Source: Ruditapes philippinarum
Lineage: Eukaryota
DNA length: 22,163 bases
Assembly (NCBI RefSeq): GCF_026571515.1
Contig: NW_026851538.1
Coordinates: forward strand, 1-22,163
Direction of reading: 5' to 3'
Below are positions 3,290 to 22,163 of this stretch, in pieces. The notes beneath the pieces are model-generated. The model was given only the letters and a program-made list of their open reading frames with translations, was not told the origin of the DNA and searched no databases. The number at the start of each line of letters is the position of its first letter. Within the stretch, counting starts at the first letter, position 1. The position numbers and the translations under genes are program-made.

Positions 3290-4067
3290 TGAAAATAACA
3301 AAGGGCAATAACTGAAAAATAATGCAGAGTAGGTTATCATTCTTGTGTGCTGCATTCCTCCTCAGTAAAATCTATCCACCTATGAAGTTTCAAGTTGATA
3401 CCTCAAATACTTTTTGAGAAAAAAATTGAATTGAAAAATTAAGTATGAAAAATAACAAAGGGCAATAACTCAAAAATAATACAGGGTAGAGTTATCATTC
3501 TTAAGCACTGCACTCCTCCTCAATGGGATCCATCCACCTTTGAAGTTTCAAGTTGATACCTCAAATACTTTTTGAGATAAGCTCTGGACAAAATAGCATG
3601 AAAAAAAACAAAGGGCAATAACTCAAAAATTGTATAGGAAAGAGTTATCATTCTTGCGCACAACATACCTCCTCAATAAGATCTATCCACCTATGACATT
3701 TCATGTTGATATCTCAAACACTTTTTGAGTTATGCTCCACTCAGGTGAAAAATTAGGTATGAAAAATAACAAAGGGCAATAACTCAAAAATTATGAAAGG
3801 TAGAGTTATCATTCTTGTGCACTGCACACCTCCTTAGTGAGATCTATGCACCTATGAAGTTTCATGTTAATATCTCATAGGCTTTTGGAGTTATGCTCTG
3901 GACAAAAATCAATTTTGAAAAATAACAAAGGGCAATAACTCAAAAATCATGCAAGATAGAGTTATCATTCTTGTGCACTGCACTCCTCCTCAATGAGGTC
4001 TATCCACCTATGAAGTTTCAAGTTGATAACTCAAATACTTTTAGAGATATGCTCCGGACAAAAATGT
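3290..4067 (+). repeat. Tandem array of about 5 copies of a ~145-166-bp unit. Unit: ..aaaataacaaagggcaataactcaaaaat..agagttatcattcttgtgcactgcactcctcctcaatg..tatccacctatgaagtttcaagttgatacctcaaatactttttgag... BIV160/Cg170-type bivalve satellite family, subfamily 1.
   Basis: The motif acaaagggcaataact recurs at about 3298, 3464, 3608, 3769 and 3925. The similarity to the bivalve satellite is from memory only, not from a search. Confidence 0.85.
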
Positions 4068-5014: not shown

Positions 5015-6957
5015 ATGTTGCATTTCCTTTCAATGTGGGTTGGCCATTGATGAAGTTTAATTGAATTACTCTGTAATAAGTCCAGAAAGACAAAGAAAAG
5101 GAACAAAGGGCAATAACTCTATAAGTCTGTATTTTGTCAAATGGAGTTATTGTTCTTGTGCACTGCACTTCCTCTTAATATCCTTGACAACTGTATGAAG
5201 TTGTATTGAATTCCAAACAGTAGTTTTCAAGTTATGCTCTGGACAAAGAAAAGTAACAAAGGGCAATAACTCTGTAATTAGTCAAGATAGAGTTATGGTT
5301 CTTGTGCACTGCACTTTCTCTTCAATGTGCTTGACCATTGTTTGAAGTTATATTATTTCCAACCATTAGTCTTCAAGTATGGTCCAGACAAAAAAAGGCA
5401 ATGGAAAAGTAACAAAGGGCAATAACTCTGTAATTACTTTTAGATAGAGTTATGGTATTTTGTGCACTGCACTTCCCCTTATTGTGTTTGACAATTGTAT
5501 GAAGTTGTTTTGAATTCCAACTAGTTGTTTTCAAGTTTATGCCTCGGACAAGGAAAAGTAACAAAGGGCAATAACTCTGTATTAGTCAAGATAGAGTTAT
5601 TGGTTCTTATGCACTTGCACTTCCTCTCAATGTGCTTGACCATTGTTATGTAGTTATATTGACATTCCAACCATTAGTCTTCAAGTTATGGTCCGGACAA
5701 AAAAGGAATAGGGAAAGTAACAAAGGGCAATAACTCTGTAATTACTTTAGATAGAAATTATGGTTCTTGTGCACTGCACTTCCCCTTTTGTTGTTTGACA
5801 ATTGTGCGAAGTTTGTTTTGAAAATTCCTAACAGTAGTTTTCAAGTTATGCACCGGACGGAAAAAGTAACAAAGGGGGCAATTACTCTGTAATTAGTCAA
5901 GATAGAGTTATGGTTCTTGTGCACTGCACTTCCTCTCAATGTGCTTGACCATTGTATGTAGTTATATTGAATTCAAACCATTAGTCTTCAAGTTATGGTC
6001 CGGACAAAAAAGGCAATGGAAAGTCAAAAACTCTGTTTAATAACTTTAGATAAAGAGTTATGGTTCTTATGCACCTGCACTTCCCCTTATTGTGTTTGAC
6101 CAATTGTAATGAAGTTGTTTTTTGAATTCCAACCAGTTAGTTTTCAAGTTTATGACCCGGACAAGGAAAAAGTAACAAAAGGCAATAACTCTTGTAATTA
6201 GTCAAGATAGAGTTATGGTTCTTGTGCACTGCAACTTCCTATCTATGTGCTTGACCATTGTATGTAGTTATATTGAATTCAAACTATTAGTCTTCAAGTT
6301 ATGGTCCGGACAAAAAAAAGCAATTGGAAAAGCAACAAAAGAGCAATAACTCTGTAAATTTACTTTAGATAGAGTTATGGTATTTGTGCACTGCACTTCC
6401 CCTTATTGTGTTTGGGCAATTGTATGAAGTTGTTTTGTATTCCAACCAGTAGTTTTCAAAGTTATGCCCCGGACAAAGGTGGAAAAGTTAACAAAGGGCA
6501 ATAACTCTGTAATTAGTCAAGATAGAGTTTTATGGTTCTTGTGCACTGCACTTTCCTCTCAATGTGCTTGACCATTGTATGTAGTTATATTGAATTCCAA
6601 CCATTAGTCTTTCAAGTTATGGTCCGGACAAAACAAAAGCAATGGAAAAGCAACAAAAGGGCAATAACTTGTAATTACTTTAGATAGAGATATTTGGTTC
6701 TTGTGCACTCCACTTCCCTTATTGTGTTTGACAATTTGTATGAAACGTTTTGAATTCCAACCAGTTGTTTTCAAGTTATGCCCCGGACAAGGAAAAGTAA
6801 CAAAAGGGCAATAACTCTGTAATTAGTCAAGATAGAGTTATGGTTCTTATGCACTGCACTTCCTCTCAATGTGCTTGACCATTGGTATGTAGTTATATTT
6901 GAATTCCAACCATTAGTCTTCAAAGTTATGCTTCCCGGACAAGGAAAATGCAAACGG
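5015..6957 (+). repeat. Tandem array of about 12 monomers of ~155 bp, organised as a higher-order repeat of two alternating variants. Type A: ..attagtcaagatagagttatggttcttgtgcactgcacttcctctcaatgtgcttgaccattgtatgtagttatattgaattccaaccattagtcttcaagttatggtccggac. Type B: ..attactttagatagagttatggt.tttgtgcactgcacttccccttattgtgtttgacaattgtatgaagttgttttgaattccaaccagtagttttcaagttatgccccggac. Same satellite family as 3290-4067, but a distinct subfamily.
   Basis: acaaagggcaataact-like anchors at about 5102, 5257, 5411, 5563, 5717, 5868, 6030, 6175, 6335, 6495, 6650 and 6805. A/B alternation read by eye. Confidence 0.85.
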
Positions 6958-7149: not shown

Positions 7150-7905
7150 ATGCATAAAAAATTGTCCCAAAAAAGGCACAAAATTTTCAGTAGTTTATGG
7201 AAAATACCAGCTTACAAGCAAAAACCTTTACCAAGAATTTCTAAGCCGCAAAAAAGAGGCATAATTATGAAAAAAAATAAGGGTTATGGGACTTGTGCCA
7301 ATCATGTTAAATAATCACTGAGAAACAAGTGTGTAAAATTCCAATCCATTCCCTTTCAGTATTTATGGAGATACCAGCTTACTCGCATAAACTTAACCAA
7401 GAAATTTTCTAAGTCGAAAAAGGGGCATACTTATGCAAAAAAGCAAATCAGAGTTATGAAACTTGTGTCAATCATGTTAGATAATCACAGAGAACAAGTG
7501 TGTGAAGTTTCAATCCATTCCCTTCAGCTAGTTATGGAGATACAACCTTACACGCAAAAAACTTAACCAAGAATTTCTAAGTCGAAAAAAGGGGCATAAT
7601 TATGCAAAAAAAAGCAATTCAAAGTTATGGGACTTGCGCATATCATGTTAGATAATCACAGAGAACAAGTTTGGTGAAGATTCAATCTATTTCCTTCAGT
7701 AGTTATGGAAATACCACCATACACCGCATAAACTTAACAAAGAATTTCTAAGTCGAAAAAGGGGCATAATTATGCAAAATAGCAAAATCAGAGTTATGGG
7801 GACTTGTGCCAATCATGTTAGATAATCACAGAAAACAAGTGTGTGAAGTTTCAAATCCATTCCCTTCAGTAGGTAAAAAGAATACCAGCTTACACGCTTA
7901 CATTT
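7150..7905 (+). repeat. Tandem repeat, about 4.3 copies of a ~160-180-bp unit (..cagtagttatggaaataccagcttacacgcataaacttaaccaagaatttctaagtcgaaaaaggggcataattatgcaaaa..agttatgggacttgtgccaatcatgttagataatcacagagaacaagtgtgtgaagtttcaatccattcccttcag).
   Basis: Unit starts at about 7188, 7366, 7525, 7698 and 7868. Confidence 0.75.
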
Positions 7906-8179: not shown

Positions 8180-9180
8180 GACAGATAAGAACAAAAAACC
8201 ATTCAAGAGCCAATTTGCTTGACTAGAATTTATGGAAAGAGAAGGGGGGGCTAATTCCTTAAAAACTGCTTGCAGAAATTACCTGCCCTTGATAAATAAA
8301 CAACTTAACCCCTTTCCCTCATGAGTTATATTGGTCGAAACAAGAGGGCCATGAAATGCCCTGAGGTCGCTCAACCTGTTTATAGGCCCAAGACGAAGAC
8401 GGTTGAATCCACTAGGTCACCCTTGAGAATATTTCAGGGGAGGCTTATAAAAATGGCCTTTTTCATTGAAAAGCCCCCTGGGTTACAAGTTAAAACTGAT
8501 TAATGAAAACTATTGAAAAAATTTGCCCTTAAATACTAATCAAAACTTGGGCACACCATGTTGAACTGGACCATTGCCTTTGTAAACGACTGCTTCAGTT
8601 TAAATTTCCGTTTACCAAAGCAACGAGGGGACGTCCTCAAAATACCTAAATTCCCATATTTTGCCTTCGGATTTTTTTCCATCAAGTGCTGAACTTCTAA
8701 GGGGTTTGAGATAGAGTCAAAGGCTTTTCAGCCCTTGGTTACACATTACCCTTTTTGATCGATCTGGGATCATTTTCAACCTCTCACAAGTACAAAATTT
8801 CTTTTTGGGCGATGGGAAAGGGGATTGCCCCCCCCCTTCAAACCCCCCAAACAGAAGGGGCACCACATCCCCCCTTCCTGGCAACCCCCTGATGTATCTT
8901 TTTTGGATGGGGGAACCGCTCCGGAAAAAATTGCTTCACTTTTCTTAAGCAACATATTCTCCAACGAAAACATATAATTTGGGGCCCCCCAAATAGGACA
9001 TTTTCTCACTATTTGAGGCCTAAAAGGGGGGGGGGTCGAAAGTGTGTTTGTTTTCGCGTATATTATAGGTAAAGGGTTAAGTGAAATAGTGATCTTGATT
9101 TTGTTTGTTTTTATTGTTTTTTTTTTGTTTTTGTTTTTTTCAATAAAATTAGAAAAAAATAACAAGACCTGTCAAAAGGA
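8180..9180. other. Homopolymer-stuttered, G/C-run-rich block (gggggggg, ccccccccc, gggggggggg). Part of it is a noisy copy of clean sequence nearby: 8224-8290 vs 9241-9300, and both relate to the ggggcataattatgcaaaa motif of the 7150-7905 repeat.
   Basis: Direct reading. gaaggggggggctaattccttaaaaactgcttgcagaaattacctgccc vs aaaaggggaccataattttgcaaaactgcttggcagacccttacctagcc. Confidence 0.4.
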
Positions 9181-10020
9181 CAACAGGTTCCTCGTTTTTT
9201 TTTCAGTGCTGGGATAGTGTAATTTAAAATTCACAATATAAAAAGGGGACCATAATTTTGCAAAACTGCTTGGCAGACCCTTACCTAGCCTTAATAGTGA
9301 ACTTGTTTTCAAGTTTTGAACATTAATTGTTCTTTTTATATAGATAAAGGCAAAACACTCTAAATAAAAAAACCGGAGATGGTTAACAAAATATTGCTTT
9401 CCAGGATTATCTTCCCTTTAGAAATGGCCATTTCAAAATTTTACCAGGTGAAAAAGAAGTAGAAGGCAAGAAATGAATGAAGAAGACTGTTTTTTATTTT
9501 TGCGACTTACTTATCTTTTTTGGAAGTTGTAAAATCTTTTGGAATTCTGGACTCCCAATGGTAGTAACTCGTTTCTGCCAACACTTTTTGATTGTCAAGT
9601 AACACTTATTCATCTCTTTCCTCTTTCTTGCAGATCGTGTAGTGCTTTTTTCAAGACGTGTCTGTAGCTAAAAAATTTAAATAAAGTTAATAGAAACATG
9701 ATTTTCCCTGTTAGTTTCAGTCCCATTTATATATTTAGGAAAATACGTTGGGAGGACTGAAACAAGGTCGGATAAGACAAGGGAGTCGTTGAAAATCAGG
9801 GGGTGGCTAAGGCAGTCTTGACTGTAACTTGTAAATTTTTTCTTAATCAGCTAATAATTCACCCTTAACAGATAAACGAATAATTAGCTTTGCTTGATAG
9901 TAACACCAAGATCCTTGATAACAAAGAACTTTAAACAAATGGGTCATGATGGCCCTGAAATCACTCACATGAATTTTAAAAACTCTTCCATGACAAGGAA
10001 CAAGTAAAATTGTAAACTAT

Positions 10021-11000
10021 AAAACAAAAGCAGATATAAAATCTAAATCTTAAACTGATATCACAAAGTTCATATTTGGTATCACAGAAATAGTGCATGT
10101 GTAAAAACAATACTGGTTGCTATTGCAAAGGGAAAACAACAGTTGCCACAGATGTGTACAATAGGGAAAAATCAATGACCCCATGGGGCAAATTTTCACC
10201 AAAGAGCTTTTATTTAAACAACTTGGTAAACTCTTATGAGACAATGTATCATGCTTAATATCTAAGCTCTATCTATTTGGTTTCTTTAAAAGAAGATTAT
10301 TTAAAGTTTTTACTATATACATATAAGGAAATCAATGACAGCCCAGGACAGGGCCAATATTGACCCAAGTCTTTTTATTTGAACAATTTACTTGGTAAAT
10401 ATTCACTAGAAAATGTTTCATTTTTAATATCAAAGCTCTAGCTATTTGGGTTTTCTCAAAACAAGATTTTATTTTTTTTTTCTATGTGCATATAACGAAA
10501 ATCAACTACCCACTTAGGCAGGGCCAATTTTGACCCCAGAAAATTTATTTGAACAAACTTGGTAAACACTCACTAGAAAATGTTATATCCTTAATATCTA
10601 AGCTCTAGCTCTTTTTTAAAAGATTTTTTTTTTACTATATGATGATATACAAATTAGGAGAATAAATTACCCCCCCCCCCCCCCCTCCCCGGGGCAGTGC
10701 CAATTTTTTACCCTAGAGCTTTTATTAAATAAACTTGGTACAATAAATTTAGTAAATGTCTCAATTAGTGATTGCTCTAGCACCTAGCTCCTTTGGTTTA
10801 AAAAAATAAAATAAATAAATTTTACTATATACATATAAGGAAAATCAATGACTCCCAGGGCAGGGCCAATTTTGACCCAAGGCCTTTTATTTGAACAAAC
10901 TTGGTAGACACTCACTTGAAAAAGTTTCATGCCTAATATCTAAGCTCTAGCTATTTGTGTATTTTTTCTGAAGAAGATTTTTTTTAGTTTTTCTTATATA
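10021..11000 (+). repeat. A ~130-bp header (aagcagatataaaatctaaatcttaaactgat..gtgcatgtgtaaaaaca.tactgg..cagatgtgtacaat) followed by about 5 tandem copies of a ~170-185-bp unit (tatatacatataaggaaaatcaatgac..cagggccaattttgacccaag..ttatttgaacaaacttggtagacactcac.agaaaa.gtttcatgcttaatatctaagctctagctatttg). One copy carries a poly-C run (10668-10690).
   Basis: Copies at about 10160, 10330, 10500, 10650 and 10840. Confidence 0.7.
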
Positions 11001-11043
11001 ACATAAAATAACATTAAGTATATTCAGTACTTTTGCATCATCA

Positions 11044-11072
11044 CGAAATCCAGTCGGATGGATGGACAGAAG
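11044..11072 (+). repeat. Short (GGAT/GGAC)n-like microsatellite relic: cagtcggatggatggacagaaggtaaacc.
   Basis: Direct reading. Resembles the microsatellite that ends the 3290-4067 array. Confidence 0.45.
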
Positions 11073-11899
11073 GTAAACCTAAAGTCCCCCTGGTTAATCT
11101 AGTAGGGGACCAATAAAAGCTAGTTGGGAGCATAATAAAAGGAAATAATTGCCTCAAGCTAATCATTAAGTGTAGTACTATACAATTGTTTTTCTGTTAA
11201 GGATAATATCATCTTGTGTAACATGATACTTCCTGGTTTAAAAATTAAATAAATCTATCGCTACAAGTTTACACAGGTTAAATACATAGCAGTGGATAGA
11301 CGGGAAGTGACTTGTCAGATAAGAAACTAAAGACGGCAATATCTTTAATATTCTAGACAGCAGTATAAATACCTGGTGAGTCAATTTACTCAATATCTAT
11401 GTTTAAAAATTAAATAAAACTTATCAAGTATTTATATTACTTTAAATTGATTTAAGTTTGCCCTACAGTTTAAATAACCTTGAGAGAATTTTTTTATACC
11501 CCACCCACACTTCAAACTAACTTTAAATGGTTAATATTTTATTTTGATTGGTTAATGTGACAACATGATCTGCATATTCTTAAAAAAGGAATAACCTGAA
11601 CACGTCAGTCACTAAACTATTACAAAAAGGTCATCGTAATCCTGTATTTCTCACCTGAGATATATTGCTAGGAAAGGTCACATTTTTTATTTTCCAAGAA
11701 TGACTTCCTATTTCATCTGCCTTTAATATTATTTACCCAAGCTGCATTATTCTTCAGATATTTGTAGATGTCTGCTATTAAATGCTTAATGACAAATATC
11801 TAAGCTATTGGCATTGTAGTTTTACAAAACAAGAGGGCCCTGTATCACTCACCTGAGAAACAGGTCAAAGTGGAGCCCGTTTTCACCGCAGAAGCACAA

Positions 11900-12440
11900 T
11901 TTGAAAACAAGGGACAGCTTAACCTTAACAATTTTGACCCTAAAGCAATTATTTAAACAAAGATGGCAGACATCCACTAGAAGATGTTTCATGCCAAATA
12001 TCTAATCTATAGTGCTTTTGGATTGTCATAAGAAGATTTCTTAAGTTTTTACTATATACATATAAGGAAAATCAGTGACCCCCTGGGGTGGACCAATTTT
12101 GACCCTAGGAATTTTATTTCAACAAACATGGTAGACATACACTAGAACATGTTTCATGACATTGTCCTCATGTGAGCTTAAAAAAAAGCAGATATTAAAT
12201 CTAAATCTTAAACTGATCACAAAGTTCAAATTTGTATGTGAAATAGTGCATGTGTAAAAACATTACTGGGAGAACAACAGTTCCAACAGATGTGTACAAT
12301 GACAACTTGGGGCGAGGCCAATTTTCACCCCAGGGCTTTTATTTGAACAAACATGGTAGACACCCATTAGAAGATGTTTCATGCTTAACATCTAAGCTCT
12401 AGCTATTTAAGTTTTTTAAAAGAATTTTTTTAAGTGTTTA
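11900..12440 (+). repeat. Second block of the 10021-11000 family. Units at about 11900-12170, then a duplicate of the header (12181-12290 ~ 10021-10150, roughly 80-85% identity by eye), then another unit (12290-12440).
   Basis: Direct alignment by eye of 10021-10330 against 12181-12440. Confidence 0.65.
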
Positions 12441-12461
12441 CTATTTTAAGTTTTTTCTTTT

Positions 12462-12477
12462 GGTTGCCATGGCAACC
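12462..12477. other. 16-bp perfect palindrome ggttgccatggcaacc, partly reiterated (catggcaaccatggcaacc), at the end of the 11900-12440 block.
   Basis: Direct reading. Confidence 0.6.
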
Positions 12478-12499
12478 ATGGCAACCAGAGTTCTGCAAG

Positions 12500-12800
12500 G
12501 AATTTAATTCTTTGAACAACTTTGGTAGATTTTGACCCCATGGGCATGATTTACTTCACTTTGTGTAATTCTACATACCAAATATCTAAGCTCTGGGCAT
12601 TGTAATTTCAGGGAAGAAGATTTTTTAAGACATTTTGACTGTACAAATCTATGTAAACTAAGTTAACCTTATTGCTTGGCCATTTTTTACTCCAGGGGTA
12701 TGACTTATACAACTAGTGTAGAGATCCATTGAGCCATTGCTTCCTGCCAAATATCTGAGCTCCTGGTAATCATATTGAAGACTCACAAAAAAGACATAAA
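12500..12800 (+). repeat. Two copies of a ~150-bp unit (..ttttgaccccatgggcatgatttacttcactttgtgtaattctacataccaaatatctaagctctgggcattgtaatttcag..). Related to the flanking families through the ttttgacccca / aatatctaagctct cores.
   Basis: Copies at about 12520-12660 and 12670-12790. Confidence 0.5.
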
Positions 12801-12869
12801 TGTATTTTCCTTTACAAGTCTACATAAAGTAAGTGACTCCAGGGAAGGAGGCAAGTTTGATCACAAATG

Positions 12870-14262
12870 AGTCAAAATGTGATCACCAGAGTGTTCACAA
12901 GGTTTTTCCATATTTGGGCGGCGTGACCTAGTTTTTGACCCCAGGTGACCCATATTTGTCCTTCACCTAGAAATTATCAAAACAAACTTTCAGAGCAATT
13001 TCAAGTACTTTTTATTAAAACAGTAGTCACTAGAGTGTTAACAAGATTTTATATTTTTAGCTCCTGTGACCTAGTTTTTTCATCCAAGATTACCCATGTT
13101 CGAACTCATTCGAGCAATAAAGCTAGACAAGCGTCCTAAAAATCCTGAAAAAGTTTAATGATGATTGAGGCAAAAATGTGACGTTAGAGTGTTAACGAAC
13201 AAATGTGGACGGACGACAGTCGACGGACGACTGACATTTAACAATCCTAAAACCTCACCCTGAGCAAACTGTAAAATCTAAGCTTTGAGCATTATAGGTT
13301 GAAACAAGATGAAATAAATGTGTTTTCCTAGGATATAAGTCTACATAAACAAAAGGGCCCTGATTATGAAGGCTCAATCCCATATTATTTGGGCTGACCT
13401 GTGTGACCTAGTTTTTGACCCCAGATGATCCATATATACAATGTACTTGACCTCAAAATTTCATTTAAACAACCTTTCTGAACAATTTTCCTGGATATTT
13501 GGATCAAAAAACAAAAGCTTCTATAGTGTGTTTACAAGGTTTTTCCATAATATTGCTGTGTTGCCTTGGTTTTTAACACTAGTTGACCAATATTTGAGAT
13601 TGACCTAGAAATCACCAATACAACCTGTCTGACTGATTCCTAGATATTTGAATCATAACAGTAGTATCTAGAGTGTAAACAAGGTTTTTCCAGATATTGG
13701 TCTGTGTGACCTACTTTCTGACAAAAAGTGACCCATATTTAAACTTGACCTAGAAATTATCATAACAACCTTTCTGACCAATTTCTAGGATATCTGGACT
13801 GGAACAGTAGCCCCTAGAGTGTTTACAAGGTTTTCCAATACTTATGCTGTGTGACCTAGTTTTTTGACCCAAGGTTGAACCCATGTTCTTACTTTGCCTA
13901 GAAATCACCATAACAACTTTATTGACCAATTTCCAGGATATTTGGTTCAAAACAATAGCCTCTAGACTAGCAAGGTTTTTTCATATCTGGGCAGTGTGAC
14001 CTAGTTTTTGACTATCGATGACCTATATTCCAATTGAGATGGAAATGATATAAACAACCTTTCTGACCAATTTCAAGGATATTTGGATCAACATTGTAGC
14101 CTCTAGAGTGTAAACAAGGTTTTTCCATATTTGGACAGTGTAACCTAGTTTTTGACCCAAGGTAACCCATATTCAAACTTGACCTTGAAATTATCATACC
14201 ATCCTTCCTGACCATTTTCCATGACATTCTATGATAGCCCCTAGACAAGTGTGTACAAAGTT
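12870..14262 (+). repeat. Tandem array of about 9 copies of a ~148-bp unit (..agagtgtttacaaggtttttccatatttgg.c.gtgtgacctagtttttgaccccaggtgacccatatttg..cttgacctagaaattatcataacaacctttctgaccaatttc.aggatatttggatcaaaacagtagcc.ctagagtg..). Interrupted at 13140-13380.
   Basis: gtgacctagttttt anchors at about 12924, 13067, 13401, 13560, 13706, 13852, 14000 and 14143. The small minus-strand ORFs 13750-13950 and 14012-14248 are periodic repeat artefacts. Confidence 0.8.
13205..13245 (+). repeat. Degenerate (GGAC)-type microsatellite relic inside the array: gaacaaatgtggacggacgacagtcgacggacgactgac. Resembles 4050-4110.
   Basis: Direct comparison with ggacaaaaatgtcggatggaaggacggacgg at 4055-4085. Confidence 0.45.
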
Positions 14263-14346
14263 TTATGTTGATATCTCTTATTGTTTCAGAGTAATGTCCC
14301 GGACAAAGTTCAAAGTGTAAAAAGGGAACCTTTGTTGCAATATACC

Positions 14347-14548
14347 TGTTAAGTTAAATCCAACACCTTATTAATGCTAACGCCAACACTAAATAAATAT
14401 ATTTCACTTTAATGTATGGTCATAATCAACAAAGTAACTTCATTATTCCAATCCTAACGTTGCTAAGCCAGTTGATGACGTCGTGACGTTATGACGTCAT
14501 AATGACGTTATATAAAGTTTACTAAACAAAAATAAGATGAAATTAACA
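14347..14548 (-). repeat. 3' LTR of the copia element (202 bp). Contains a TGACGT(C/T)(A/G) cluster (tgatgacgtcgtgacgttatgacgtcataatgacgtta; four CRE-like half or full sites, one exact TGACGTCA) and a palindromic TATA element (tatataaag).
   Basis: Direct reading. Confidence 0.75.
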
Positions 14549-14556
14549 TTAATTAT

Positions 14557-14580
14557 ACTTTCTTTCTTTTCTTCTTTTCT
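14557..14580 (-). promoter_or_regulatory. Polypurine tract (minus strand reads agaaaagaagaaaagaaagaaagt), 8 nt upstream of the 3' LTR.
   Basis: Plus strand 14557-14580 is actttctttcttttcttcttttct. Confidence 0.6.
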
Positions 14581-14664
14581 GTGATGTTTTGAGTCATTAA
14601 AAAAACTGATGTTTTGAGTCATTAAAAAAAATGTAAGATATAAAAATGTTAAAATTCTACAAGT

Positions 14665-14973
14665 CTATATAAAATCTTTTGAAATTGTTCCTTCTTGTAT
14701 TACACACAGCAGATCATATCCGGATGCCCCACGCTTAGTCATACAGTCAGCCAAATGATGTTTCCCTGGGCACCATCGAATTTCTTTGACTTCATTTCTG
14801 GACAAGGATTCGCTGATTGCAGCTATATCTACACGAAGACGCTTGTCATCTACTAGCTTGGTTGAATTCACAGCTTCTATTACACTTCTATTGTCCACAT
14901 AAGCAATTATTGGTATTGTGTGATTGGGTATCCTTAGAGCGTTTTCGATCATTTTGTCTGTAATAATATCCAC
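14665..14973 (-). CDS. Copia RNase H C-terminal segment (102 aa; YVDNRSVIEAV .. VDIAAISE .. HHLADCMTK). Overlaps the RT ORF in a different frame, which is the second frameshift.
   Basis: ORF track, plus the copia-typical C-terminal AD..TK motif. Confidence 0.6.
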   Translation of the reverse strand: MDIITDKMIENALRIPNHTIPIIAYVDNRSVIEAVNSTKLVDDKRLRVDIAAISESLSRNEVKEIRWCPGKHHLADCMTKRGASGYDLLCVIQEGTISKDFI

Positions 14974-15964
14974 ATTCTAATCCTTCTTGTAAACTGAGAG
15001 CTTCAGCAGCAATTGTTGATCGTACTACCCTTTTTATTTTGTTGGTATGCCAGAAAAGTGGACAACATTTTCCAGAAGTGTCCATTAACCATACTATATA
15101 AGCCGCAGTGCTCCCTGTTCCAGAATTTATGTTGCACAAAGATGCATCTGTGAAGACTGCAATCTTCCAATCACCTACAAAGTTGCTCAATTGTGGGAAT
15201 CTTATAAAAGACTTGAAGTTTTTCAATCTGTTCACTGCTTTGATCGCCTGAGATAGATCACTCATTGTAGCTTCCTTGAGTTTAGTGCTCAAGTCTATCA
15301 ACTCAAATGCCATATCGGGCCTTGTTCCTTGCACTACCCAGTTAATCTGACCAATGATTTTCCTGAAAAGAGTCTGTTCTTCAGATGTTAATACTTCCTG
15401 TTTATTCTGGACTCTCTTTGTGTCAATCTGTCTGCTCTCTATGTTTTCCACATATCTAGATTGGTCCAGAATAATTGCATTGCTCTCCTGAGAAATCCTG
15501 AAACCAATATAATCAAACTGTCCTTTTTCAATTTTTCCTGCAACAAATCGTTTTCGTAATTTAGTCAGGACCTTCTCCAAACATTCATCACCAGCATGAA
15601 GAAAATCATCAACATGACAACAAATAATGCCGTTAAGCTTGTCTCCAGTGTGCAGAAAGAACATTGCTGGATCCATCTCTGATATATGACACCCTAATCT
15701 AATTAACTCGTCTTTCACACTTAGATAGAATTGTCTTGCTCCGTCTTTGAGGCCATAAAGTCCATGTTTAAGTTTCCAAATTATTCCAGCGATAGTGTCA
15801 CTTTCCTTTGGAGGTTTAATGTAGACTTCCCTCCGAATTTCTTTTCCCTGTAGAAACGCCGACTTTATATCTGTGGTTTTTACAATCCAATTATTTACAG
15901 CTGCAAGTGCAAGAAATGTTCTAAGTGTTCCTTTTCCCACTGTTGGACTGTCACTTTGCATCAC
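14888..15964 (-). CDS. Copia reverse transcriptase and the N-terminal part of RNase H (358 aa). Motifs: DIKSAFLQG, YGLKDGARQFY, CCHVDDFLHAGDE (YXDD box), QGTRPDMAF, IAVFTDAS. Different frame from both neighbouring pol ORFs.
   Basis: Motifs in the ORF track. 15964 and 18272 are in different frames. Confidence 0.8.
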   Translation of the reverse strand: MMQSDSPTVGKGTLRTFLALAAVNNWIVKTTDIKSAFLQGKEIRREVYIKPPKESDTIAGIIWKLKHGLYGLKDGARQFYLSVKDELIRLGCHISEMDPAMFFLHTGDKLNGIICCHVDDFLHAGDECLEKVLTKLRKRFVAGKIEKGQFDYIGFRISQESNAIILDQSRYVENIESRQIDTKRVQNKQEVLTSEEQTLFRKIIGQINWVVQGTRPDMAFELIDLSTKLKEATMSDLSQAIKAVNRLKNFKSFIRFPQLSNFVGDWKIAVFTDASLCNINSGTGSTAAYIVWLMDTSGKCCPLFWHTNKIKRVVRSTIAAEALSLQEGLECGYYYRQNDRKRSKDTQSHNTNNCLCGQ

Positions 15965-15974
15965 ATATTCTTCC

Positions 15975-18272
15975 TCAAATCCGCGTACAACAAGTCGAGC
16001 CTTTGTTTGACCATTTTTTGTGAGTTATCACCCATCTTGTTGATAAAGTTACCTGACCATAATCTTGAACTTCTTCATATGTGCCAAAGTGTTGCAGCTT
16101 CTGAAGTTCACAAATTTTAGCAGATGTGACTTCATCATCAGCACAAGTCTGTTTCATTACCAAATTAACCTCATTTGTTAACATTTTCCATTGAACTGCC
16201 TCCAGATTAATACTCTTCTTCTCTTTGCTGATATCTTCCTCTATATTATACCAAAACTTGTTTCTGCCTGTTGCTTTTCCAGCCCTTCCTAGTATTTTTG
16301 CTTGTATCCACTGATCTGTATCCTGTGCTCTATATTGTATGTTGTCATTTGCCTTCAATGTCCTTTCTTCAGGTGGAATATTTTGAATGTTGTTTTCCAA
16401 ACTAGCTGATGATCTATCTGACATGTTTGACTGCAAGTTCTTAAATGGATCTGAGGATGGTATGTCCTCGTTTATGGTCTGCATACTTGTCTGATCTGAG
16501 GTTTGCTGGTCAGCTAATGTGCCCTCATTAGCATTGCTTCTTTCTTCTTCCAGACTTTCATAACTGTTTGCCTCACGATTATCAGAACTCATATAATCAT
16601 TTACCCTCTGCAGCCTATTAGGCGATACTCGCACAAACACTGCTCCATGTCTAACAAACACCACTTTTCCATCTTGAAATACCACCTTTCCAGGTCCAAG
16701 CCAACGCTCTTTTCCCTCTCGCTTGTAGAAAACATTATCACCATGTTCAAAAACTTGTTCAGAAGCCCTTACTTTATTACGTAGAGCTCTCCTTATTCTT
16801 TCGTCAGCTTCCGACTGAATGAATGCTCTCCGAGCAGCATGCAAAACATTCAAATGCCTTGCAAATTCCTCACTGCTGGTGGTCCCTTGTAATGCAGGCA
16901 AGTTTTCACTCATAATATTGGGAATATTGGGGTTCTGCCCAAAAACAAGCTGATGACTGCTAAAACCATTCCACATCTGTAAAGAATTTCTTGCCATATT
17001 CGCCCATGATAGTAACGTCTGCAAGTCTACTTTCCCACAATCTGCCTGTAACTTAATCAGCATCATATCTGTTATAGCATGCACTCTCTCACATAAACCA
17101 TTCTGAAATGGACTTTGACCAGATGTTGTGCATAATTTAATGTTCAGTATTGACGTGATCTCTCTTACTTCATCTGAATTGAATTCACCACCGTTGTCAG
17201 TCATTAATGAGCCCATCATGCCAAACTTACCTACCCATTCCCTCATCAGTGCATCTATAATCTTTTCTGGCTTCTTTCTGTTGATAAACGTTGACACCGT
17301 ATATCTGGACCACATGTCTATAATGTGTAAAATCCAGCAGCCGTTCCATTGCTTAAGATCCATCGCAACTTTTTCATTGAACTTGGAAGCCATAGGCATA
17401 CCTACGACAGGCCTTGATGGAGTTTTTGCATACATCTTGCAAAGTTCACAATTGTTAGTAATGAGATCAAGAGTTTCCTCAAATTCTTCTCTCCAGATAA
17501 CTGCATCTTTCATAAGTGCTGACAGCCGTTTCTTAGGTGGGTGTGCAAATTGCCTGTGCAATTTCACAAATGTTTTGTATCTCTCATTTTTGCTTAAATC
17601 ATCAAAGTTTACAGCACAAACACTTTCTACAGGTACCTCTACCGTCTTATCTATCGGAATACAGTAATGACCTGATGTTGTCAAATTTAAAGCCACCTCT
17701 TTTCCCATAATGCTAGCTGTGTCGTTTTCTAGATCCATTTTTATAGCAGCCCTCTTCATTGCTGTCCGAGACAATAACAGGGGAATGTCCGACTCCACAA
17801 CATCTGTTTTGATGAAAACATCTTTGCCAGCAATCACTGCAGGTATACAGTATTCTCCTTTTGATGTTAGGCATGTCCCACCACCAAACTTGAAAACTCT
17901 CTGACTATCTAACTGTGTTACTCTCTGTTTATCTCCTACATCTAATGACTGTATATAGTTATTTATCCAGTTTTTACCACACACTGTACTGCTGCAAGCA
18001 CTATCAAGAACAGCACAATTTCGAGCATCTACACCCAAACGCTGAATCTCATCCTTATTGTAACCTGTAAACAATACTGCATGTTCCTCTTCAACAGCAT
18101 TCACTTTCTTCATGTTTTCCCAGCTATGGGGGCATGCCTGTAGCAGATGCCTATATGAACCACAAGACTTGCAGGTAAGCGTTCTTCCATCTGGACCAAT
18201 AGGATTGATGTTCTTTGCAAGACCTTTTCTGTGACTGTCTTGAGCAATGTCTGAACGCTGAAACTCTTTCAT
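15975..18272 (-). CDS. Copia gag(C-term)-protease-integrase ORF (765 aa). CCHC zinc knuckle CKSCGSYRHLLQAC. Aspartic protease VLDSACSST. Integrase HHCC (HRQFAH..CELC) and DDE core (HIIDMWSRY .. TDNGGEF .. CERVH). An acidic/Ser-rich linker, then the start of RT (TLSTRWVITHKK). Frameshifted relative to the downstream RT ORF.
   Basis: Motifs read from the supplied translation. Domain order PR before IN before RT is diagnostic of Ty1/copia. Confidence 0.8.
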   Translation of the reverse strand: MKEFQRSDIAQDSHRKGLAKNINPIGPDGRTLTCKSCGSYRHLLQACPHSWENMKKVNAVEEEHAVLFTGYNKDEIQRLGVDARNCAVLDSACSSTVCGKNWINNYIQSLDVGDKQRVTQLDSQRVFKFGGGTCLTSKGEYCIPAVIAGKDVFIKTDVVESDIPLLLSRTAMKRAAIKMDLENDTASIMGKEVALNLTTSGHYCIPIDKTVEVPVESVCAVNFDDLSKNERYKTFVKLHRQFAHPPKKRLSALMKDAVIWREEFEETLDLITNNCELCKMYAKTPSRPVVGMPMASKFNEKVAMDLKQWNGCWILHIIDMWSRYTVSTFINRKKPEKIIDALMREWVGKFGMMGSLMTDNGGEFNSDEVREITSILNIKLCTTSGQSPFQNGLCERVHAITDMMLIKLQADCGKVDLQTLLSWANMARNSLQMWNGFSSHQLVFGQNPNIPNIMSENLPALQGTTSSEEFARHLNVLHAARRAFIQSEADERIRRALRNKVRASEQVFEHGDNVFYKREGKERWLGPGKVVFQDGKVVFVRHGAVFVRVSPNRLQRVNDYMSSDNREANSYESLEEERSNANEGTLADQQTSDQTSMQTINEDIPSSDPFKNLQSNMSDRSSASLENNIQNIPPEERTLKANDNIQYRAQDTDQWIQAKILGRAGKATGRNKFWYNIEEDISKEKKSINLEAVQWKMLTNEVNLVMKQTCADDEVTSAKICELQKLQHFGTYEEVQDYGQVTLSTRWVITHKKWSNKGSTCCTRI

Positions 18273-18283
18273 GCCTGATTTTC

Positions 18284-18523
18284 CTAATTTCCCCTTTTCC
18301 AGTTTCCTCTGCTGCCTCCATTATAATTCCCTTGTTGAATTCTTAATTTGGAGTAACCTGCAGCAAGTAGCGCCTCTTCATTTGCTGCAAGAAAAGCAGG
18401 TTCTAGTTTGATACTTGAGCTGCCACTTGACATATTCATGTCATTACCCTTAAACTTTTTCAGTGACTTCTTAGCCTGTTCGTACAATGTAGCTTTTTCA
18501 TCATAATTCACCACCAGTCCCAA
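18284..18523 (-). CDS. Short gag-like ORF fragment (79 aa) upstream of the main gag-pol ORF. The N-terminal part of gag is presumably lost in the stuttered block 18530-19105.
   Basis: ORF track; its position relative to the zinc-knuckle ORF. No recognisable motif of its own. Confidence 0.35.
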   Translation of the reverse strand: MGLVVNYDEKATLYEQAKKSLKKFKGNDMNMSSGSSSIKLEPAFLAANEEALLAAGYSKLRIQQGNYNGGSRGNWKRGN

Positions 18524-18529
18524 AGACTA

Positions 18530-19105
18530 GCACCGCCCTCCCCTTGGAAATGTTCCGCCCTCAGAAAGTAGTTTTAAAAGCCAAAAAATTCAGCAGGCAA
18601 ATGTCCCTACTTTTCCCTTTTAATTTCCCTATCTTTTAATCAAAACGTACCATATTTATTTAAAAATTTGGGTTGGAGAAACTTAATAAAATCCTTTCCA
18701 AAAAAACCTAATTTTTTTAAATGTCCCGTTAAAAACCAAACCCCTTTTTGGAAAATGTGGTCCCCGAAATAAAGAAAGTCCCAAACCAAACATCATTTTT
18801 AAATCCCCGTTTGTATTGGTTTTAAAAAATTTCAGTATTTTAGATTCATCATCCCCTTGGGGAATGATAAAGCCCAAAATTAAAACCCCCTTTGTCTTTT
18901 TTAAAATTCTGGAATTTTCCCCCCATGCCAAAAAATTTCCCGTTTTTAAAAACCTTAAAACTTCCCTTCCCCTTTTTTTAGTTTTGGAGGATTTATCCCC
19001 GGTGCCCCTATTAAACCCCTTTAAATGTTAAAAAATACCCAAAATGTTAGAAAATAACAAATGTCTAACTTTTGTAAAAAAACCTGGAATAGTTTCCCCT
19101 CCCCT
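18530..19105. other. Homopolymer-stuttered block inside the copia element, between the 5' LTR and the recognisable gag (e.g. tccccgaaataaagaaagtcccaaaccaaac, ccccttttttt, ttttttt). It should contain the PBS and the gag N-terminus but is unreadable as such.
   Basis: Direct reading. Same doubled-base texture as 1-340 and 8180-9180. Confidence 0.4.
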
Positions 19106-19289
19106 TGTTAATTTAAATAACATATTAATCTAGAACACCTAAAAAATATTTTTCATTAATGAGGTATAATAAAAGTAACTTCATTATTCCAATCCTAACG
19201 TTGCTAAGCCAGTTGATGACGTCGTGACGTTATGACGTCATAATGACGTTATATAAAGTTTACTAAATAAAAATAAGATGAAATTAACA
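19106..19289 (-). repeat. 5' LTR of the copia element (184 bp). The right 118 bp is near-identical to the 3' LTR. The left part is diverged or stuttered (ccttgttaatttaaataacatattaatctagaacacctaaaaaatatttttcattaatgaggtataat vs cctgttaagttaaatccaacaccttattaatgctaacgccaacactaaataaatatatttcactttaatgtatggtcataat).
   Basis: Direct alignment by eye. Confidence 0.7.
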
Positions 19290-19750
19290 ATACCCCCATC
19301 ACAGAAGTTTTTGACAGAGATGTGGGCATTATAAATAAGCATATAGGAAATATGCATTGGGCATCTGGAAAATATCTGGATATTTTATCATCTCTAGTGA
19401 TTTTTTATCTGATTTTTCACCCCTATGTGTGACCTTGACCTTAGCCGCAGGGACCTAAATTTTGTGCGCGACACTCCGCTTTACAATGGTGAACATTTGT
19501 GCCCGGTTATATTGAAATCCCTCTATGCATGTAAATTTTTGCTCCGGACAAGCCGTTTTAACAATGATCCTAAAAAACACTTGAAAACTTCAAAGCATGC
19601 TTCAAACAACGACTAAAATCTAAAAGATAATTTGGTTTTCCTAATTGAATTAAGGGTGTCATAAAATAAAGGAAAGAGGCACTGATGGCAATTACGTATT
19701 AGCATTAAAATCTTAATGAGTAAAATACATAATAACCAGTATTGAACATT

Positions 19751-19773
19751 TATAAATAACTTTCTATTCTAGG
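19751..19773 (+). promoter_or_regulatory. tataaata (19751-19758) and, overlapping, a splice-acceptor-like tract tttctattctag|g (19761-19773) 8 bp before the ATG. It is either a very close TATA box or, more plausibly, the 3' splice site of an upstream non-coding 5' exon.
   Basis: Direct reading. TATA to ATG is only 23 bp, which argues against a simple TATA-driven leader. Confidence 0.3.
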
Positions 19774-19780
19774 TTACATT

Positions 19781-21550
19781 ATGGCTGTGCCTGGTAAAAA
19801 GTCATCTCAGAAACTGTCATCTACACTATCTCAAGGTGGTGCTGAAGATTTTGACATTTTCTGTGAAATATGCAACCAAGATGACATCAGACTACCTGCC
19901 TTTGGTTACTGTGTCGATTGTGAGGAACATTTATGTCAAACTTGCTTTTACACTCACAGACGACCAAAACCACTACGTCATCACCAACTTCTAGATAAAG
20001 ATCACATGCCACATAAACAAAACCTCCATAAGTCATTAAAATCTACTTCTGGTGGAAAGACAGCTGATTTGACAAAGTCTTGTCCTAAACATACAAATGA
20101 AATTATCAAGTTTTTTTGTCATGACCATAACGCACTTATATGCAGTGTTTGTGTGACCCTTCAACATACACCAACATCCTGTCAAGTGGACTACATACCT
20201 GATATATCAGGACAGATTTTAGACAGCATGGAGTTCAAAGAAACTCTAAAAGATATTGACAAATTAACAGACAAATGCTGCCAGATTACAAAAGATCTGA
20301 AACATAGAGTTGCTAAATCAACAACTTCTCTGAAAGATGCTATAGTAGAAATAGAAAACTTTAGAAAAGAGATAAACAAAAGATTAGATGAACTAGAAAA
20401 GGAAGTTAAAGATACTGCAACAAAAATCCAACATGACAACAACAACAAGTTGAAAACAACAGAAACAACATGTGATGACATCAACAAATCACTCCAAGCA
20501 TCAGCTGATACTCTAAAACATCTCAACACCAACAAGAAAACTGACCAACTGTTTACTGAATTGAAAATAGCTCAGCAACTGATATTACACAATGAAAATA
20601 TAATTACACAACTACCAACAACCAATGATGTTGATGAATACACTTTTGAACCAAATCAAGCAATCAAAAAACTCCTTCAGAATGAGAAATCATTAGGAAC
20701 ATTGAGAACAAAGGAACCAAAGAAACTACCTCCACCAATGGATAAGGCTGCATTACCAATGAAAATGTCTACCCCTAGAAATATCAATGTTAAAACTTCC
20801 TCAGATATTGATGAATGCTGGATTACTGGAATAACTGTCTCTCCTCGGAACAAATTATTTGCAGCAGATTACCAAAATGAATCAATTAAAATGATAGACA
20901 TAAAAAGTGGAGCAATCAAACAATTACTGCTTGAATCAAACCCCTGGGATATCACCATGGTGACCAGAGATACACTTGCTGTTACATTACCAGTCATTAA
21001 AACAATACAGTTCATTTCCTTCTCCTCAAACTCTCTCTCATTGAAAAACAAACAGAAAGTAGATGGATCTTGCTACGGAATAAGCCATCATCAGGGGAAA
21101 CTTGCAGTTACCTTTATATATCCTGGTGAACTCAAAATCATGGACTTGAGAGGTAATATTAAAACTACAGTTGAGAAATATTCCAATGGCGACAGTATTT
21201 TCAGTGGCCCTTCGCATGTCATCACAAACAGCAATTCAATCTATATAACTGATAGAGGCCAAAAGGAAGTTACATGGTTTAACTGGCAGGGAGAGATGAT
21301 AGGAAGGAATGTAGACATTAAAAGTCCAAGGGGTATTTCACTGTTAGATGACGGGTCCCTCTTTGTGAGTGATGGCGGGAATAATTGTATATATAGAGTA
21401 AGTGGTGACTTTAAAGATAAGACAACTATACTGGAGGGTGTAGAGGATCCTCGAGTTGTATGTTGGTGTGCTGAGACCAGTACACTTTATTTTAGTACAC
21501 ACAGCAACACAGAGAGTGACAATATTATCAAAATATATAAAATGATGTAG
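19781..21550 (+). CDS. Uninterrupted 589-aa ORF for a RING-less tripartite-motif-like protein. B-box1 (aa 28-67: C-x2-C-x11-C-x2-C-x4-C-x2-C-x3-H-x7-H). B-box2 (aa 100-133: C-x2-H-x8-C-x2-H-x4-C-x2-C-x4-H-x4-C). K/E/L-rich coiled-coil region (about aa 150-300). C-terminal NHL-repeat beta-propeller-like region (about aa 340-589, repeated ..I.V...G.I.V.D.GN..I..F.. blocks). TRIM2/3/71-like B-box/CC/NHL family.
   Basis: Cys/His spacing read directly from the translation. Long ORF with coding-like composition. The family assignment is by domain pattern, not by a search. Confidence 0.72.
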   Translation: MAVPGKKSSQKLSSTLSQGGAEDFDIFCEICNQDDIRLPAFGYCVDCEEHLCQTCFYTHRRPKPLRHHQLLDKDHMPHKQNLHKSLKSTSGGKTADLTKSCPKHTNEIIKFFCHDHNALICSVCVTLQHTPTSCQVDYIPDISGQILDSMEFKETLKDIDKLTDKCCQITKDLKHRVAKSTTSLKDAIVEIENFRKEINKRLDELEKEVKDTATKIQHDNNNKLKTTETTCDDINKSLQASADTLKHLNTNKKTDQLFTELKIAQQLILHNENIITQLPTTNDVDEYTFEPNQAIKKLLQNEKSLGTLRTKEPKKLPPPMDKAALPMKMSTPRNINVKTSSDIDECWITGITVSPRNKLFAADYQNESIKMIDIKSGAIKQLLLESNPWDITMVTRDTLAVTLPVIKTIQFISFSSNSLSLKNKQKVDGSCYGISHHQGKLAVTFIYPGELKIMDLRGNIKTTVEKYSNGDSIFSGPSHVITNSNSIYITDRGQKEVTWFNWQGEMIGRNVDIKSPRGISLLDDGSLFVSDGGNNCIYRVSGDFKDKTTILEGVEDPRVVCWCAETSTLYFSTHSNTESDNIIKIYKMM

Positions 21551-22163
21551 AACCAAGCAATGGATATCAATGCAGACATAACAAAACATATACAATTGTA
21601 AAATGCTAAAAGCTTTAATACAGCAAATTTAAATACCATACTAATGCACATAGAAATATCTATTATTTAATGCACATTGAAATATCTATTATATAATGCA
21701 GTGTTAAAATTGTTTATTCTTGCTGCTACTTTGACCTTTCACTTAAGTAAAATGTTTGAGTTTCACACAAATGAACAAGATTTCATAATATTAATAATAA
21801 CAAAGTTCATGTACTATGTTTATATAAAGCACTATAGTCTAGAATATCACTATAGTTATCACTGTGGTGAATCATCTAAGAGTCACATGTCATCATTTAT
21901 AGAATCATTGTACATTTTCATTCACATTCATCATTTATAGAATGATGGGTATTATCTTGTTTATGTTGTTAGTTGTTATTGTTCAGTGAACTGTCATATG
22001 TTGTGTCCAGTGTTGTCAAGTGTTGTCTTGTATGTGTGTGGCAAGAGCATACATTTGGACAGGAAGATAATTATCATTGATTGACATTGAAGTTTATCAT
22101 TTCTTACCTAACGAAGTCAGAGTTAGAACTTAGTTTGAGTTGAAATCTGCAGTCTATATAGTG

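Follow-up and report, generated by a model that had tools for sequence, protein, structure and literature searches.

Canonical TRIM/RBCC E3 ligases combine an N-terminal RING with a B-box and a coiled coil. The class VII TRIM-NHL E3 ligases (TRIM71/LIN-41, TRIM2/TRIM3, TRIM32/Thin and Mei-P26) carry this RING together with the B-box, coiled coil and an NHL fold, and TRIM2, TRIM3 and TRIM71 have a filamin domain as well; all are low-copy and conserved. In TRIM5alpha and in the fish finTRIM/bloodthirsty families, which also retain the RING, the B-box/coiled-coil scaffold presents a C-terminal recognition domain of the B30.2/SPRY type. The surface loops of that domain are hypervariable, with ratios of nonsynonymous to synonymous substitution (dN/dS) above 1 among tandemly expanded paralogues, and an antiviral role has been demonstrated for these families. 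Drosophila Brat and C. elegans NCL-1 have the order two B-boxes, coiled coil and six-bladed NHL propeller without a RING. Brat has been described as an 'incomplete TRIM' on that account, and it contacts its ligand via the top face of the propeller, through the b-c and d-a loops (PMC4015489). Here we analyze a gene with the same RING-less order in the Manila clam, Ruditapes philippinarum, encoded by a 589-residue open reading frame (ORF) at 19781..21550 (+ strand) of a 22,163-nt stretch of contig NW_026851538.1, hereafter the window. The locus is an ordinary intact paralogue of a massively expanded 'incomplete TRIM' family of heterodont/venerid clams. On balance, and with some reserve, we read it as an intact member of a RING-less recognition family that arose by DNA-level duplication and whose 5' untranslated region (UTR) intron has been inflated by transposable elements (TEs).

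A RING-less B-box, coiled-coil and NHL protein

The 589-residue ORF is the sole long ORF in its part of the window. It is a complete single-exon coding sequence (CDS; 589 codons plus stop) whose ATG sits in a favorable Kozak context (A at -3, G at +4). Its product consists of B-box1, B-box2, a coiled coil and a six-bladed NHL propeller, without a RING. B-box1 (residues 27-69; 19859..19987, on the + strand like all parts of the gene given below) is matched by Pfam PF22586, the ANCHR-like B-box (E 8e-7), and has the pattern C-x2-C-x12-C-x2-C-x4-C-x2-C-x3-H-x8-H. B-box2 (residues 100-134; 20078..20182) is matched over residues 100-129 by PF00643, zf-B_box (E 2e-8), with the pattern C-x2-H-x8-C-x2-H-x4-C-x2-C-x4-H-x4-C. 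All zinc ligands, 8+8 across the two B-boxes, are present, and C28, C31, C44, C47, C52, C55, H59 and H68 of the first as well as C101, H104, C113, H116, C121, C124, H129 and C134 of the second are invariant or nearly so among 46 homologues. A profile built from these 46 homologues and run against PDB sequences matched the TRIM28 B-box/coiled-coil region (E 2e-8, positions 19-235), with B-box1 of both MID1 and TRIM28 matching the first B-box, and the NHL propellers of Thin/TRIM32, TRIM71, Brat, TRIM2 and TRIM3 (E 1e-17 to 1e-10, positions 342-557).

The coiled-coil region (residues 150-301; 20228..20683) is delimited by AlphaFold2 (AF2) secondary structure and by the TRIM28 RBCC profile match, coiled-coil-type families having appeared in the Pfam scan only as noise matches. 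Its helices in the AF2 model (150-250, 254-277 and 293-301) resemble the TRIM antiparallel-dimer hairpin, with a helical hairpin of ~130 residues. Residues 302-330 form a low-confidence linker to the NHL domain, and the Pfam scan at E<=1 found no filamin/ABP280 repeat between coiled coil and NHL. The propeller (residues 331-589; 20771..21547) has a single significant NHL repeat in Pfam (PF01436, residues 515-537, E 2.5e-8). The predicted local distance difference test score (pLDDT) of the AF2 model averages 77 and exceeds 90 over residues 331-589, where 24 strands make up six four-stranded blades. Foldseek against PDB returned the NHL domains of Thin, Brat, TRIM2, TRIM3, Mei-P26 and TRIM71 (E 1e-15 to 1e-12) at template modeling (TM) scores of 0.70-0.78. 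By both profile and structure, class VII supplies the best PDB matches to a protein with neither RING nor filamin domain. A preliminary description, written from the letters of the window, had proposed two B-boxes, a long coiled coil and an NHL-like C-terminus with no RING; Pfam, the PDB profile, AF2 and Foldseek agree with it, and both B-box and NHL signatures were recovered by domain search.

Relatives of the protein fall into >150 clusters at 90% identity, and the named ones come nearly all from R. philippinarum and Mercenaria mercenaria. The best match, at 86% identity, is an R. philippinarum protein named 'TIF1-alpha-like/TRIM71-like'. Twenty-eight Ruditapes proteins match at 66-86% identity with 100% coverage and Mercenaria relatives at up to 59%; the named Ruditapes paralogues (P0001, 590 aa) and their Mercenaria counterparts share the length and layout of the window protein and align with it end to end. 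Among the matches listed, >120 homologues of ~570-595 residues align end to end and have B-box and NHL as their only Pfam domains. The N-terminus MAVPGKK is common to the family and nearly invariant in the 46 homologues. An exhaustive HMMER search over 1.84 billion cluster representatives (50%-identity clusters) gave 20,279 matches at E<=1e-3 and 1,276 clusters at E<=1e-30. Among the best 150 matches, lengths are mostly ~560-640 residues and alignments start at the first residues, and named members of this wider set belong to Mercenaria and Mya arenaria. These counts confirm the strong expansion in bivalves that had been supposed from the sequence. Expansion of a B-box orthogroup in bivalves has been reported (PMC8382680), and in the literature searched we found general statements but no dedicated paper on bivalve expansions of RING-less B-box/NHL genes. 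A profile search of a word-indexed protein database returned the same venerid set again and no outgroups. One metagenome scan was without matches, and a second gave distant relatives at 26-34% identity (L003-L009), which were not used further. No entry identical to the 589-residue protein was found in public protein and gene collections, and exact-sequence look-ups of this protein and of the RefSeq paralogues P0001, P0002 and P0012 returned no genomic record.

The family is already annotated by RefSeq in the Manila clam and the hard clam, and the gene itself is no discovery. The RefSeq names 'E3 ubiquitin ligase TRIM71-like' and 'TIF1-alpha' are similarity labels, the proteins having no RING, PHD or bromodomain. 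Two R. philippinarum RefSeq models with top scores against the family profile, P0121 (1088 aa) and P0122 (1063 aa), are about twice the usual length. They probably represent either neighboring paralogues that gene prediction has merged or genuine tandem-domain proteins, and in either case their length is consistent with a tandem arrangement of family members. Clam paralogues in JGI sample 3300049158 (contigs L001, L010, L011 and L012) are named 'tetrahydromethanopterin S-methyltransferase subunit G', 'SlyX' and 'YncE' by IMG; these are spurious prokaryote-style labels triggered by the coiled coil or the propeller.

No RING-type Pfam family was found in the protein even at E<=1, the residues N-terminal to B-box1 number only 26, and a regular-expression search through the window's six reading frames found no C3HC4-like pattern. 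We also scanned 78 family representatives at 23-40% identity to the query, with every match that has an N-terminal extension included, and a RING family was present in 0/78. Because representatives this diverse have none, the absence of a RING is an old trait of the whole family and no loss specific to this copy. The statement that the E3 module is missing therefore stands for the protein, in which the RING is absent, but not for a loss by this copy or its lineage. With no RING, the protein probably has no E3 activity of its own.

Variability and selection in the NHL propeller

We compared the DNA of six loci, namely the window, the four clam contigs from the JGI sample, and L002, a locus on Mercenaria chromosome CM038760.1. 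By the method of Nei and Gojobori, dN/dS between the six CDSs is 0.3-0.6 for the whole gene, which marks it as constrained. By region it is about 0.2 in the B-boxes, 0.25-0.54 in the coiled coil and 0.37-1.38 in the NHL propeller, where values >=1 occur in the closest pairs only (window and L001, 1.14; L010 and L011, 1.38). Shannon entropy, calculated over 29 close paralogues at >=66% identity, is lowest in the B-boxes (~0.35 bits) and highest in the NHL propeller (0.87) and the linker preceding it. Mosaicism or gene conversion had been considered for some pairs with a lower dS in the NHL than in the B-boxes, and was dropped because counts at four-fold sites showed no significant difference (Fisher p 0.13-0.78).

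With the blade register anchored on the Pfam NHL motif, whose P-x-G identifies strand A, alternate loops of the propeller are hypervariable among the 29 paralogues. These are the D-A and B-C loops, which make up the top surface in the convention used for Brat (PMC4015489). Mean entropy is 1.52 bits in the top loops, compared with 0.57 in the bottom loops and 0.67 in the strands (top versus bottom loops, Mann-Whitney p=1.3e-6). Among the five clam CDSs, dN/dS over the 67 top-loop codons is 0.92-2.5 and exceeds 1 in 9/10 pairs, while the other 189 NHL codons give 0.36-0.85. On this modeled register, divergence between the paralogues is concentrated on one face of the propeller. In the searchable literature we found no paper describing such one-face divergence in bivalve NHL proteins. 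The top loops have a net charge of -8 in the window protein and of -6.2 on average in the 29 paralogues (range -15 to +1).

Gene structure, upstream repeats and origin of the copy

The CDS is uninterrupted in 6/6 loci, the Mercenaria paralogue included, and in 6/6 a polypyrimidine tract with AG lies 6-8 nt 5' of the ATG. In the window this putative 3' splice site, ctttctattctag (19760..19772), is followed by gttacattATG, with the AG 8 nt before the ATG and an in-frame TAA at 19757, upstream of the CDS. The corresponding sequence is ttaatttcag|agaaacATG in L002 and gtgtattccag|gtgaataATG in L010 and L012. Between the window and its closest paralogue, L001, the CDSs are 88.8% identical at the nucleotide level; identity begins exactly at the polypyrimidine-AG tract, the sequence upstream is unalignable, and similarity stops <20 nt before the CDS and 41 nt after it. 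Because the tract is present in all six loci and similarity between paralogues starts there, the gene is probably not intronless. The tract is probably a conserved 3' splice site that joins a non-coding 5' exon to a single coding exon, so that 'intronless', as the preliminary description had it, applies to the CDS but not to the gene. The 600 nt that follow the stop codon showed no canonical AATAAA. A tandem duplication (26 nt x2.3, 93% identity) lies at 21642-21700, ~90 nt downstream of the stop.

A candidate for the missing exon comes from paralogue upstream regions. When these were searched against the window with BLAST, three colinear matches were obtained (11286-11326, 11359-11421 and 11473-11509; E 5e-6 to 6e-5), whose counterparts in L010 and L012 lie ~300-515 nt before the ATG. 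The conserved block ends in a donor, CTG|GTGAGT in the window (at 11376), ATG|GTGAGT in L010 and ATG|GTGATT in L012, and past the donor ~135 nt (11376-11509) are still similar to L010 and L012. A 26-nt core motif occurs once each in the window, L010 and L012; no exon-1 motif turned up in the upstream sequence searched of L001 (386 nt), L011 (856 nt) and Mercenaria L002 (10 kb). The candidate non-coding exon 1 (11286..11375) contains no ATG and has stops in all frames. From the candidate donor to the putative acceptor, the 5'-UTR intron would span 8.4 kb (11376..19772); its counterpart in L010 and L012 is ~0.39 kb. The extra sequence comprises satellite arrays at ~11781-12620 and 12888-14232, a copia element and the 490 bp before the CDS, which include a relic satellite monomer and which the preliminary description took for regulatory sequence. 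We consider this gene model, with exon 1 at 11286-11375 and an 8.4-kb 5'-UTR intron, somewhat likelier to be right than wrong. If the intron is as proposed, the locus shows satellite arrays and a long terminal repeat (LTR) element inflating a UTR intron from 0.4 to 8.4 kb with the coding exon untouched.

The LTR element is a Ty1/copia retrotransposon at 14431..19292 on the - strand, antisense to the gene. Its LTRs (118-121 nt, at 14431-14551 and 19172-19292, with true ends probably at 14548 and 19289) begin with TG and differ by 1-2 mismatches. On the minus strand a CCHC gag fragment, in ORF 15975-18272, is followed by an integrase core (rve, E 1.9e-7) and then an RVT_2 reverse transcriptase (E 3.7e-22), and integrase before RVT_2 is the Ty1/copia order. 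A polypurine tract (~14561-14585) adjoins the 3' LTR. The element thus has the gag(CCHC)-PR-INT-RT plan of Ty1/copia, with short near-identical LTRs, but differs from an intact one in its interrupted ORFs (18284-18523, 15975-18272 and 14888-15964) and in the replacement of most of gag. No 5-bp target-site duplication was found, the flanks tcaac and atacc being different, and no tRNA-Met-like primer-binding site adjoins the 5' LTR. Calling the retrotransposon young is justified by LTR identity only. Some 600 nt of homopolymer-inflated sequence (18521-19110) stand in for most of gag. Similar patches occur at 1-500 and 8700-9300. Mean run length in such inflated sequence is 2.09 versus 1.36-1.39 in the adjacent TE, and runs of >=3 nt account for 32% versus 7-8%. 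The patches have the appearance of artifacts from unpolished long reads or gap filling. The patch within copia may explain the broken ORF, and a 129-residue ORF at 8776-9165, in another patch, is probably spurious. A tandem duplication (25 nt x2, 100% identity, 14582-14630) adjoins the polypurine tract.

The gene-proximal LTR does end close to the gene, ~490 bp upstream of the ATG, as the preliminary description noted. It went on to call the regulatory landscape of the gene largely TE-derived, which is doubtful in view of the colinear 5' block with its GTGAGT donor at 11286-11509 and of the antisense copia, whose 5' LTR promoter points away from the CDS because of that orientation. Given the 5' block and donor, an intronic position is more likely for the 500 bp preceding the ATG, for copia and for two satellite arrays, and copia and satellite DNA probably lie in a 5'-UTR intron rather than in the promoter.

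Three other accounts of the locus were weighed against this structure. An intronless CDS beside TE-rich DNA could be a processed retrogene, and both the lack of interruptions in the CDS and the near restriction of similarity with L001 to the CDS would fit retroposition of an mRNA. However, every locus examined has the uninterrupted CDS, which is ancestral in the family; the acceptor conserved 5' of the ATG would be missing from a processed mRNA copy; the downstream sequence (21551-22163) shows neither a poly-A tract nor a flanking direct repeat; and paralogues cluster on common contigs and chromosomes. We regard a retrogene as very improbable. Nor does the single-exon CDS inform on the origin of this copy, because Mercenaria paralogues at 59% identity have it too. 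Of the two origins first suggested, retroposed or tandem-duplicated, only duplication thus finds support: we infer that the copy arose by tandem or segmental duplication at the DNA level, a mode favored because many paralogues share contigs or chromosomes. Still less credible is a mis-delimited gene, in which an upstream RING-coding exon spliced to the acceptor at 19772 would restore a canonical TRIM-NHL E3 ligase. The 8 nt from acceptor to ATG contain no stop, so that translation could formally run on from a coding exon further upstream. Yet no frame of the window holds a RING-like pattern, candidate exon 1 has no ATG and is closed in every frame, the nearly invariant MAVPGKK is the annotated start in >100 RefSeq models, and none of the 78 family representatives scanned carries a RING.

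The locus might instead be a silent or decaying duplicate, a dispensable paralogue of recent origin in which TE and satellite insertions have broken up the 5' region and which is too young for its ORF to have decayed. Some 8 kb of repeats plus copia separate the CDS from the sole paralogue-like 5' block, similarity to L001 extends past the CDS by no more than 20 nt on the 5' side and 41 nt on the 3' side, and the exact protein is absent from public collections though the family is well annotated in R. philippinarum. Against this, the ORF is full-length, the zinc ligands and fold-core residues are all intact, and so are the putative splice acceptor and the Kozak context. In addition, comparison with the closest paralogue gives a dN/dS of 0.27 for the B-boxes and 0.53 for the coiled coil, indicating constraint in at least one lineage, and long TE-filled introns are common and compatible with expression. 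We consider a silent duplicate unlikely. Nothing about the RING-less state, the single coding exon or the TE-rich setting is out of the ordinary for the family and the genome, and the family-wide absence of the RING, the single coding exon and the putative splice site before the ATG correct both the 'E3 ligase' labels and the idea of a recent loss or retroposition.

Satellite DNA makes up >1/3 of the window. Between copia and the gene, 19415..19560 (+ strand) is a single degenerate monomer of a ~155-nt venerid satellite family, with the motifs gtgaccttgacc and, further on, tgctccggacaag. Aligned locally with the ~157-nt tandem monomers upstream of the Mercenaria paralogue (L002 ~9265-9372), its part 19415-19522 scores 44, the maximum over 100 shuffles being 31; BLAST matches of the relic have E values of 0.002-0.008. 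Similarity of 19400-19620 to the arrays inside the window is at most marginal (z<=3.7). We take the relic as real from comparison with the Mercenaria array only; the 'array-6-like' relic of the preliminary description keeps its place as a monomer, but its likeness to arrays in the window does not go beyond the marginal. The 170-nt array at 7186-7897 is 66-73% similar (E to 7e-31) to the L002 array at ~13090-13667, which follows the Mercenaria paralogue at a distance of ~1.3 kb. Both venerid genera thus carry this satellite family near paralogues of one gene family.

At least four further tandem arrays with periods of 145-170 nt lie at 3292-4065, 5121-6948, 10189-12620 and 12888-14232, some with higher-order periods of 290-340 nt. 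The short motifs gggcaataactc, tgctccggacaa and gtgacctagtttttgacc are common to several arrays. Short GC-rich hairpins (gtcccc...ggggac; ccgcccacc...gtggcggg) followed by A/T-rich sequence occur at the ends of satellite stretches, at 11084-11110 in the window and ~9860-9885 in L002, the latter ~110 nt upstream of the ATG and within the presumed intron. These hairpins resemble Helitron/Helentron 3' termini, fitting satellite arrays carried by such elements. A perfect 154-nt palindrome at 1228-1381, with two 77-nt arms that are 100% complementary and have no spacer, adjoins a homopolymer-inflated patch and could be a real foldback or an assembly artifact from a chimeric or foldback read.

A possible recognition protein without a RING

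By its architecture, the protein would dimerize through the coiled coil, with the B-boxes mediating higher-order assembly or partner binding. The NHL propeller would be the specificity module, binding ligands via the D-A and B-C loops of its top face, the part that appears to diversify between paralogues. Such a protein may serve as a recognition or adaptor subunit, plausibly in intracellular defense or proteostasis, with its output passing through sequestration, oligomerization or recruitment of other factors, possibly RING-bearing ones. Compared with its Ruditapes and Mercenaria relatives, whose CDS, where the DNA was examined, likewise occupies a single exon, the window copy has its own top-loop residues and a TE-inflated upstream region.

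If the clam protein were a post-transcriptional regulator like Brat or NCL-1, its NHL top face would bind RNA motifs and repress translation, and expansion of the family would diversify the RNA targets, for example viral or transposon RNAs. The RING-less layout is identical to that of Brat (PMC4015489), the Foldseek and profile matches include the RNA-binding propellers of Brat, Mei-P26 and TRIM71, and the face that varies is the one that binds RNA in Brat. However, RNA-binding TRIM-NHL propellers, Brat included, have electropositive top faces (PMC4015489), whereas the top-loop charge is negative in the window protein and nearly all of the 29 paralogues. Identity with the NHL domain is ~17% for Brat and 13-21% across Brat and TRIM71. 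Developmental RNA regulators are normally single-copy and conserved, and Brat itself is a conserved, essentially single-copy developmental RNA-binding repressor, unlike the hundreds of fast-evolving clam paralogues; the class VII ligases differ from the clam family in the same way. We therefore find a Brat-like role distinctly unlikely, and since the loops of the top face carry a net negative charge, a protein or some other ligand that is not a nucleic acid seems likelier than RNA of the Brat type.

Several points count against the reading that we prefer, an intact recognition paralogue with an inflated 5'-UTR intron. The top-loop dN/dS values come from five clam CDSs by the Nei-Gojobori method with few synonymous changes (4-13 per pair), and relaxed constraint on surface loops could give dN/dS near 1. 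The charge is a crude count of loop residues rather than an electrostatic surface calculation, and top and bottom were assigned from the AF2 secondary-structure string and the Pfam NHL register rather than from 3D coordinates. The 5' block at 11286-11509 is matched by only L010 and L012, which are related by shared descent, and a dispersed repeat or what is left of an old promoter, instead of an exon, could account for it. The absence of the exact protein from public collections, given above for a silent duplicate, belongs here as well.

An analogy may be drawn with TRIM5alpha and the finTRIMs, in which a B-box/coiled-coil scaffold likewise presents a C-terminal recognition domain, although theirs is B30.2/SPRY with the RING retained and the clam family has an NHL domain and no RING. 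By this comparison only, the NHL top face of the clam proteins might work like the variable loops of TRIM5alpha and finTRIM, with NHL replacing B30.2. Many TRIM-like transcripts have been reported in an oyster module associated with tolerance of the parasite Perkinsus (PMC9892467). From the evolutionary pattern and this general literature an immune role is plausible. We presume that the gene is expressed. A diversified recognition repertoire would be expected to leave such a signature, divergence on one face with dN/dS close to 1 or higher. We suggest, tentatively and as a possibility rather than a preferred conclusion, that the heterodont-clam expansion of B-box, coiled-coil and NHL proteins is a set of germline-diversified intracellular recognition proteins, an NHL-based, RING-independent repertoire of innate sensors or restriction factors, in which this locus would be one allele-rich member and TE-inflated 5'-UTR introns a by-product or substrate of rapid copy-number turnover. 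If true, this would add an NHL-based family to the expanded immune-type receptors of invertebrates.

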